DNA of 64,000 nucleotides from Escherichia phage kaaroe: sequence record MN850574.1; one strand, 5' to 3'. The notes beneath the pieces are model-generated. The model saw only the letters and a program-made list of their open reading frames with translations. It was not told the origin of the DNA and made no database searches. The translations under genes and the position numbers were made by a program. Of this stretch, positions 21,464-22,162 are shown piece after piece (the first letter of the stretch is position 1; the number at the start of each line of letters is the position of its first letter).

Positions 21464-22162
21464 ATGCATACAATGGTTAAAATGGTCTTCGGATCTCACT
21501 TATACGGCCTTGATACTGAAAATTCCGATAAAGATTATCGTGGTATCTTTGTTCCGACTGCGAAAGAAATTATCTTAGGATCGATGAAAGAACACTATGA
21601 TCAAAGCACTAGCGGTCAAGGGATCAAGAACACCAAAGACGATATTGACGTTAATATGTTCAGTCTAAAACGGTTTATCAATCTGGCATGTAAAGGCGAT
21701 ATCGGCGCTATTGACATGGTGCACGCTCCTAGTAACATGTTGATTGAATCCTCCAGAGAATGGGAATACATCCGAACACATCGCGATAAATTCTATCATG
21801 TTGGTATGTGGGGTTTGTCTGGTTATCTCAAGAAACAGGTAGCCAAATCTGAAAAGTATTTCAGTAACTGGAAAGATCTTTCTCATGCTCTGCGTGTTGG
21901 TTATCAGCTACTTGAAATCTATCAGACAGGTGATTTACAATTCCCGCTCGCGCGACGTTCTTCTATTTTAGCGTGTAAGTTAGGAGAAAGAACCTTTGAT
22001 AATGTGCGGGAAGAATTGAAAGATCTCTACGAGCGTGTTAAACACGCTCGTGAAGAGGCAAAGAAAAACGGTATGCCGGAAGAACCAGATGTTGACTTTT
22101 GGAAAGATCTATTAGAATATATTCATCTGACAGTTGTTCTGGAACACTATACCCGTGGTTAG
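21464..22162 (+). CDS. nucleotidyltransferase (Pol-beta superfamily fold), function unknown
   Basis: 232 aa; N-terminal GS-x11-DxD signature (FGSHLYGLDTENSDKDYRGIF) followed by helical domain. Confidence 0.7.
   Translation: MHTMVKMVFGSHLYGLDTENSDKDYRGIFVPTAKEIILGSMKEHYDQSTSGQGIKNTKDDIDVNMFSLKRFINLACKGDIGAIDMVHAPSNMLIESSREWEYIRTHRDKFYHVGMWGLSGYLKKQVAKSEKYFSNWKDLSHALRVGYQLLEIYQTGDLQFPLARRSSILACKLGERTFDNVREELKDLYERVKHAREEAKKNGMPEEPDVDFWKDLLEYIHLTVVLEHYTRG

Follow-up and report, generated by a model that had tools for sequence, protein, structure and literature searches.

The locus at 21464-22162 (+ strand) of Escherichia phage kaaroe (MN850574.1) raises the question of what a two-domain nucleotidyltransferase does for the phage, and on which substrate it acts. 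The DNA examined, called here the window, was a stretch of 64,000 nt of this genome. The original prediction described the gene as one for a Pol-beta-fold nucleotidyltransferase of unknown substrate, situated in an accessory island. From the ORF list and from reading of the sequence, an open reading frame of 232 amino acids runs from ATG to TAG exactly over 21464-22162. A Shine-Dalgarno-like GAGGG (21452-21456, +) can be read 7 nt 5' of the ATG. Further upstream, a consensus scan found a terminator-like hairpin followed by a T tract (21387-21411 for the hairpin, +) 3' of vs.6, and the annotation of phage GEC-3S has a terminator at the equivalent position. A sigma-70-like promoter with an extended TG (TTGGCT-17-TATGAT, 21405-21433, +), a purely consensus-based prediction, overlaps this hairpin.

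The gene product is almost certainly a member of the RlaP family. It matches Pfam PF10127 (RlaP, "RNA repair pathway DNA polymerase beta family") with 55 bits against a gathering score of 23 (E = 1.2e-14), and the match is colinear, residues 7-201 aligning on profile positions 24-207 of 249. The product also matches phrog_388, "nucleotidyltransferase" (E = 1.1e-79); a search of NCBIfam with the product gave no match. PF10127 is the precomputed Pfam domain in 120 of the 120 homologues listed, and in an exhaustive HMMER scan 3,584 representatives of 50%-identity clusters scored as relatives (E <= 1e-3). Taken with the dN/dS values given below, these results place the open reading frame and its GS-x10-DxD signature far beyond chance. 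On the same evidence of homology, domain matches and dN/dS we designate the gene at 21464..22162 (+) nrdC.11, encoding an RlaP-family Pol-beta nucleotidyltransferase of a short form.

The signature itself lies in the peptide FGSHLYGLDTENSDKDYRGIF, residues 9-29 of the product, which yields the catalytic motif G10-S11-x10-D22-K-D24 (21491-21535, +). The catalytic aspartates, whose absence from alignments would have spoken against the original prediction, are conserved: G10, S21, D22 and D24 are invariant in the alignments of phage and bacterial RlaPs, even in comparison with RlaPs of only about 20% identity. Among the phage proteins the invariant residues are G10, S11, D22, D24, N56-T57-K58-D59, D62, D84, K137, H141 and R144. 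When Bacillaceae, Planctomycete and Acidobacterial homologues and the canonical RlaPs are included, the invariant set consists of G10, G15, S21, D22, D24, F71, K137 and R144. The third catalytic carboxylate, D62, is reached through a KNTKDD loop leading into a strand (K55-N-T-K-D-D-I-D62, 21626-21649, +), and in the alignment this loop is common only to the phage proteins and a chromosomal clade of Bacillaceae. A fourth conserved acidic residue, D84 (21713-21715, +), is D in phages and E in bacterial RlaPs. Both D62 and D84 pair with D or E in the bacterial clades, including the canonical RlaPs from Pnkp/Hen1 operons. The helical domain carries a further motif, W136-K137-x3-H141-x2-R144 (21869-21895, +), of which K137 and R144, the two residues kept throughout the family, may bind the phosphates of the NTP or the RNA.

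The AlphaFold2 model of the protein (pLDDT 95.9) has an N-terminal Pol-beta nucleotidyltransferase domain of residues 1-96 (21464-21751, +), also supported by fold matches, with strands at residues 2-9, 23-30, 44-48, 61-67 and 93-96. It is followed by helices from residue 98 to 230, which form a HEPN-like or KNTase-C-like bundle ending in a long terminal helix of residues 210-230 (21755-22153, +). The order of these elements equals that described for the PfRlaP crystal structure, i.e. nucleotidyltransferase domain, helical domain and final helix, the last of which in PfRlaP folds back onto the nucleotidyltransferase domain. Thus the Pfam match, the alignments, the model and its fold matches agree with the original prediction of a Pol-beta fold with an intact catalytic motif, and also with its C-terminal helical domain, although this domain is roughly 130 rather than about 150 amino acids long. 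A possible HEPN RNase motif in the helical domain was rejected: R107-x4-H112 fits Rx4-6H, but H112 is not conserved.

The window phage is a Krischvirus, i.e. an RB49-like T-even phage. Over 3.7 kb around nrdC.11, the RB49-like phages that match best (Krischvirus, Straboviridae) share 97.5-98.9% identity with the window, 58 records cover at least 80% of this query, and the nrdC.11 product is 99.1-99.6% identical to that of RB49, Phi1, JSE and GEC-3S; the RefSeq label of the RB49 gene is "nucleotidyltransferase". The T4 orthologue is NrdC.11 (NP_049709.1, 336 aa; blastp E = 7e-54, about 45% identity over the aligned blocks). Homologues were found by tblastn in 1,616 phage records at E <= 1e-5 and in more than 1,400 at E <= 1e-20, and the gene is conserved across Straboviridae. 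To call the locus an accessory island was therefore an overstatement. The gene is already catalogued, as RB49 nrdC.11, and belongs to a named, biochemically characterised family with a published functional hypothesis.

The absence of such a gene from T4 at this position, noted in the original prediction, is literally true of the slot between vs.6 and regB but misleading. In T4, nrdC.11 (T4 55435-56445) lies between nrdC.10 and mobD, about 7 kb from regB and in the same early-gene block. The T4 gene order is vs.8-vs.7-vs.6-vs.5-vs.4-vs.3-regB, whereas that of Krischvirus is vs.8-(41 aa)-vs.6-nrdC.11-three small ORFs-regB, the nrdC.10/mobD synteny of T4 not being found. The Krischvirus block also contains vs, tk.4 and dmd, and the downstream regB was recognised by its match to PF10715 (E = 1e-48). 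The difference in position may be due to homing endonucleases, which repeatedly adjoin the gene. In T4, mobD (T4 56429-57208) overlaps the start of nrdC.11. On the contig of a more distant relative, P0002, vs.6 and the short RlaP gene are separated by an inserted HNH/NUMOD4 gene (L090 3951-4547), and the Krischvirus records H18, H19, H23 and H24 have about 620 extra bases at this locus, two of them with an annotated homing-endonuclease or AP2/ERF-type gene. In GenBank and UniRef, PF10127 homologues are often labelled "thioredoxin", "glutaredoxin nrdC" or even "HNH homing endonuclease"; these mislabels appear to derive from the name of the gene, nrdC.11, and from its neighbour mobD.

Some of the surrounding genes were also considered. 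Immediately 5' of nrdC.11, vs.6 (20961-21377, +) encodes a GrcA-like autonomous glycyl-radical cofactor, 58% identical to T4 vs.6 (E = 4e-46); it matches Pfam Gly_radical (E = 1.5e-16) and is called "pyruvate formate-lyase" in some records. Directly 3' of nrdC.11 are three tandem small ORFs of 64, 86 and 111 aa (22184-23016, +), which are mutual paralogues (blastp E = 1.6e-10 and 1e-3), share a G-x-x-Y ... D-G-C-S/A-H-L ... W pattern without a Pfam match, and are unrelated to the vs.3, vs.4 and vs.5 genes of the equivalent slot in T4. Elsewhere in the window, 13796-14266 (+) encodes an Acb1 anti-CBASS 2H phosphodiesterase (PF23474, E = 1.5e-51). The annotation of its RB49 equivalent (57B) as "RNA ligase" is misleading.

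As to the substrate, it can no longer be called unknown for the family as a whole: RlaPs extend the 3'-OH ends of RNA by one or two NMPs, an activity demonstrated with Pseudomonas enzymes rather than with the phage clade (preprint of December 2025, 10.64898/2025.12.29.696909). The RlaPs of P. fluorescens and P. aeruginosa add 1-2 NMPs, or dNMPs, to such ends, prefer Mn2+ or Co2+, and are inactive on DNA and protein. On a tRNA mimic they favour the end at the broken anticodon loop, and they partly restore the aminoacylation of a tRNA lacking one nucleotide. They label rRNA-sized and tRNA-sized species alike and show little NTP specificity. RlaP has been proposed as an antidote to nucleotide-excising ribotoxins such as RloC. 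In the sequence similarity network of PF10127 the characterised enzymes belong to cluster 1a, and T4 NrdC.11 to cluster 5, labelled "unknown function" (all 10.64898/2025.12.29.696909). A role of RlaP against such ribotoxins is also predicted for phages by Iyer et al. (2021, PMC7824862), who cite a previous comparative-genomics study for it; in this review the distribution of RlaP is reported to mirror that of RNA ligases in jumbo phages.

In our view the gene in the window probably encodes the Krischvirus version of a template-independent RNA 3'-end nucleotidyltransferase, whose most likely task would be to refill cleaved tRNA before ligation. Of the functions listed in the original prediction, modification of nucleic-acid ends or RNA repair is thus the one favoured by the evidence. 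We infer that the phage clade shares the activity of the Pseudomonas RlaPs, acts on tRNA in vivo and serves in counter-defence. The repair would begin when a host anticodon nuclease cuts a tRNA, a "smart" nuclease of the RloC type also removing a nucleotide. The phage Pnk (pseT) would convert the 2',3'-cyclic-phosphate and 5'-OH ends to 3'-OH and 5'-P. NrdC.11, with D22, D24, D62 and two divalent metals (probably Mn2+), would then add one or two NMPs onto the 3'-OH of the 5'-fragment. Rnl1 (rnlA) would finally seal the break, returning a fraction of the repaired tRNAs to full length and function. Such a T4-type pathway is chemically compatible, since Pnk gives a 3'-OH, RlaP extends it to a product that again ends in a 3'-OH, and Rnl1 needs a 3'-OH and a 5'-P.

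The genomic contexts agree with this proposal to a different extent in bacteria and in phages. Among the bacterial relatives, which were found by a pattern scan, a Planctopirus locus (L071) has the order Hen1 - NrdC.11-like RlaP - canonical RlaP - Pnkp, in another locus (L068) an RlaP-family ORF lies directly 5' of Pnkp, and in Siminovitchia (L042) a Thg1-like gene is directly 5' of the nrdC.11 homologue. The tandem RlaP pair is kept in several Planctomycete, Acidobacterial and cyanobacterial loci. In L071 (5680-7436), as well as in L062, L072, L073 and L074, all of them loci of the Pnkp/Hen1 type, an NrdC.11-like RlaP (about 141 bits, PF10127) is followed by a canonical one (about 184 bits), which suggests that the paralogues have non-redundant roles or form a heteromer.

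In phages nrdC.11 is not adjacent to rnlA or pseT. Both genes lie outside the 64-kb window, and their presence was taken from the 98-99% identical RB49 reference, which encodes pseT (Pnk), rnlA (Rnl1) and a second kinase-like gene, with no rnlB annotated. Around the distant phage homologues of mycobacteriophage Nanosmite and jumbo phage Miami, the neighbours are all hypothetical. ARAGORN found no tRNA gene in the 64-kb window, and there are no tRNA features among the RB49 regions listed (positions 1-159,900); the lineage thus seems to depend wholly on the tRNAs of its host, and tRNA repair would be all the more valuable to it. T4 survives the laboratory loss of the fragment from nrdC.11 to mobD.3 (PMC9825161), which is to be expected of a conditional counter-defence gene and lends no positive support. 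Further points against the refilling of tRNA are the identity of only about 20% to canonical RlaPs, the different cluster in the similarity network, the lack of rnlA/pseT adjacency, and the fact that the nearest solved structure is HalB, a DNA-synthesising nucleotidyltransferase.

The same chemistry, extension of an RNA 3'-OH, could also serve the turnover of mRNA, in that after the processing of early phage or host mRNAs by RegB (and Pnk) a short 3' extension by NrdC.11 would create a foothold for exonucleases or mark the transcript. The lack of discrimination of the Pseudomonas RlaPs between rRNA- and tRNA-sized RNA and between NTPs would suit this role, and so would the position of the Krischvirus gene three small ORFs 5' of regB in a block with vs, tk.4 and dmd. 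We nevertheless regard it as unlikely. Only in Krischvirus is the gene close to regB, the T4 gene being some 7 kb away beside mobD; the bacterial relatives are found with enzymes of ligation and healing and not with enzymes of decay; and an enzyme that stops after 1-2 nt, as the characterised ones do, would provide a poor toehold for an exonuclease.

The structural evidence opens a different set of possibilities. The fold matches of the AlphaFold2 model are HalB, ANT(4'), AAD(9) and LinB, with HalB as the closest solved structure, and they would fit a nucleotidyltransferase domain combined with a HEPN-like bundle. HalB is a tyrosine-primed poly-dA synthase partnered with the HalA channel (PMC13434031). 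By analogy, the protein could be a de novo or protein-primed synthase of short oligo(deoxy)nucleotides, which would serve as decoys for, or antagonists of, a nucleotide-gated host defence; they might, for instance, hold the HalA channel of Hailong shut. We consider such a synthase quite improbable. The identity to HalB is 12-14%, the family profile found no HalB sequence in the PDB set, and the similarity is that of a generic nucleotidyltransferase plus helical bundle, seen also in ANT(4'), AAD(9) and 3c18. The sequence places the protein firmly in PF10127, whose characterised members leave protein and DNA unmodified. Searching the PDB by sequence, either with the protein alone or with a profile of 98 sequences, gave spurious matches only, in a copy that did not contain PfRlaP. 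The broader form of this idea, that the whole phage NrdC.11 clade is not a repair enzyme but a counter-defence polymerase like HalB, making untemplated and possibly protein-primed decoy oligo(deoxy)nucleotides against effectors such as HalA, seems to us slightly less credible still.

The matches to ANT(4'), AAD(9) and LinB similarly raise the idea of a small-molecule nucleotidylyltransferase, with an antibiotic-like compound or a metabolite as substrate. This is very unlikely: the TM scores are 0.36-0.42 at about 12% identity, Pfam and NCBIfam give no sequence-level match to the ANT families, the operon contexts point to RNA repair, and a lytic phage would have no obvious use for such an enzyme.

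It remains to consider whether the Krischvirus enzyme is complete, as nearly all its close phage relatives have 303-391 aa compared to its 232 aa. One contiguous block, corresponding to about residues 129-236 of T4 NrdC.11, is missing from both the protein in the window and P0002 (234 aa, 57% identity), and with this block absent the window protein is not colinear with T4 NrdC.11 over its full length. In the model of a long form the block is a discrete, confidently folded alpha/beta sub-domain of about 105 residues, and in the alignment it has conserved motifs of its own, KYGxKGSRL and YGERAR. Its site in the short protein is the junction K128-SEKYFS-N135 (21845-21868, +), located from the blastp gap, the alignment, the long-form model and the junctions of other short forms. 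The short form corresponds to the core of the family, because the Pfam model and all bacterial homologues also lack the block. The junctions differ in the other short phage forms P0145, P0155 and P0235, and in a rough neighbour-joining tree, built without bootstrap support, short forms fall in at least three places among the long ones. This pattern suggests that the ancestor of the phage clade acquired the block and that it has since been lost more than once.

Since the block folds with high confidence and is retained by almost every close phage relative, it might be needed for activity, in which case its loss would have left Krischvirus with a crippled remnant. We find this as implausible as a small-molecule substrate. 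Every catalytic and family-invariant residue is kept, and the short form aligns colinearly both with the Pfam model and with every bacterial RlaP. Among five Krischvirus genomes the dN/dS of nrdC.11 is 0.02-0.11, i.e. the short form is under strong purifying selection and is not decaying. The P0002 lineage, although only 57% identical, agrees with the window in its short form and its synteny, and short forms appear to have arisen at least three times.

The remaining functions named in the original prediction found no support. An MNT-type antitoxin, which would AMPylate and so neutralise a HEPN RNase toxin of the host, is hardly conceivable, because the protein has two domains and 232 aa compared to the 100-140 aa or so of a minimal nucleotidyltransferase, gives no significant NTP_transf_2/MNT match in Pfam, has no cognate HEPN gene beside it (the neighbours being vs.6, with Gly_radical, and small ORFs without a Pfam match), reaches MNT only at Foldseek rank 50 (E = 0.14), and belongs to a family whose characterised members do not use E. 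coli proteins as substrates. A maker of signalling nucleotides was rejected as well: the PADLOC "Cyclase" matches are sub-threshold at 12-13 bits (E = 0.008-0.019) and confined to the helical domain, and no CD-NTase or cGAS is among the top 50-60 fold matches. PADLOC matches to CARF-HEPN were also sub-threshold and were rejected as noise.

If the refilling of cleaved tRNA is indeed the function, T-even phages would possess a three-enzyme pathway for the restoration of tRNA, in which Pnk heals, NrdC.11 refills and Rnl1 seals. Such a pathway could defeat nucleotide-excising anticodon nucleases, which make simple religation useless, and the classic arms race of PrrC against Pnk-Rnl1 would gain one more move. 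As this idea has already been published (Iyer et al. 2021, PMC7824862; Carruthers et al. 2025), the window adds no new concept. It does offer a convenient construct: the Krischvirus protein of 232 aa is naturally minimal, lacks the T4-specific sub-domain and is under strong selection, so that it could be used to study both the activity of a phage RlaP and the contribution of the T4 insert.

Compared to known systems, the kanamycin nucleotidyltransferase ANT(4') and AAD(9) share the domain plan of the window protein, a Pol-beta nucleotidyltransferase with a helical substrate-binding domain, but they have a small-molecule acceptor and an unrelated biology. Hailong HalB (PDB 9dbh/9dbj) is 12-14% identical without a sequence-profile link, and no HalA-type partner is present here. 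The Pseudomonas RlaPs belong to the same Pfam family, are of similar size (about 230-260 aa) and conserve the acidic triad and the K/R pair of the helical domain; unlike them, the window protein has the extra KNTKDD loop, is encoded outside any rtcB-rtcA operon and belongs to a different cluster (that of T4 being 5). The bacterial NrdC.11-like RlaPs are 23-28% identical and have the same short colinear architecture, and they are chromosomal genes in an RNA-repair context (Hen1, Pnkp, Thg1-like). The pairing with a second, canonical RlaP in Planctomycetes and Acidobacteria is not seen in the phage. T4 NrdC.11 shares with the window protein the catalytic motif, the KNTKDD loop, the WKxxSHxxR motif and the C-terminal helix, and both genes belong to the early region of Straboviridae phages, one between nrdC.10 and mobD and the other between vs.6 and regB. 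The features specific to the window are only the architecture without the insert and the move next to regB.
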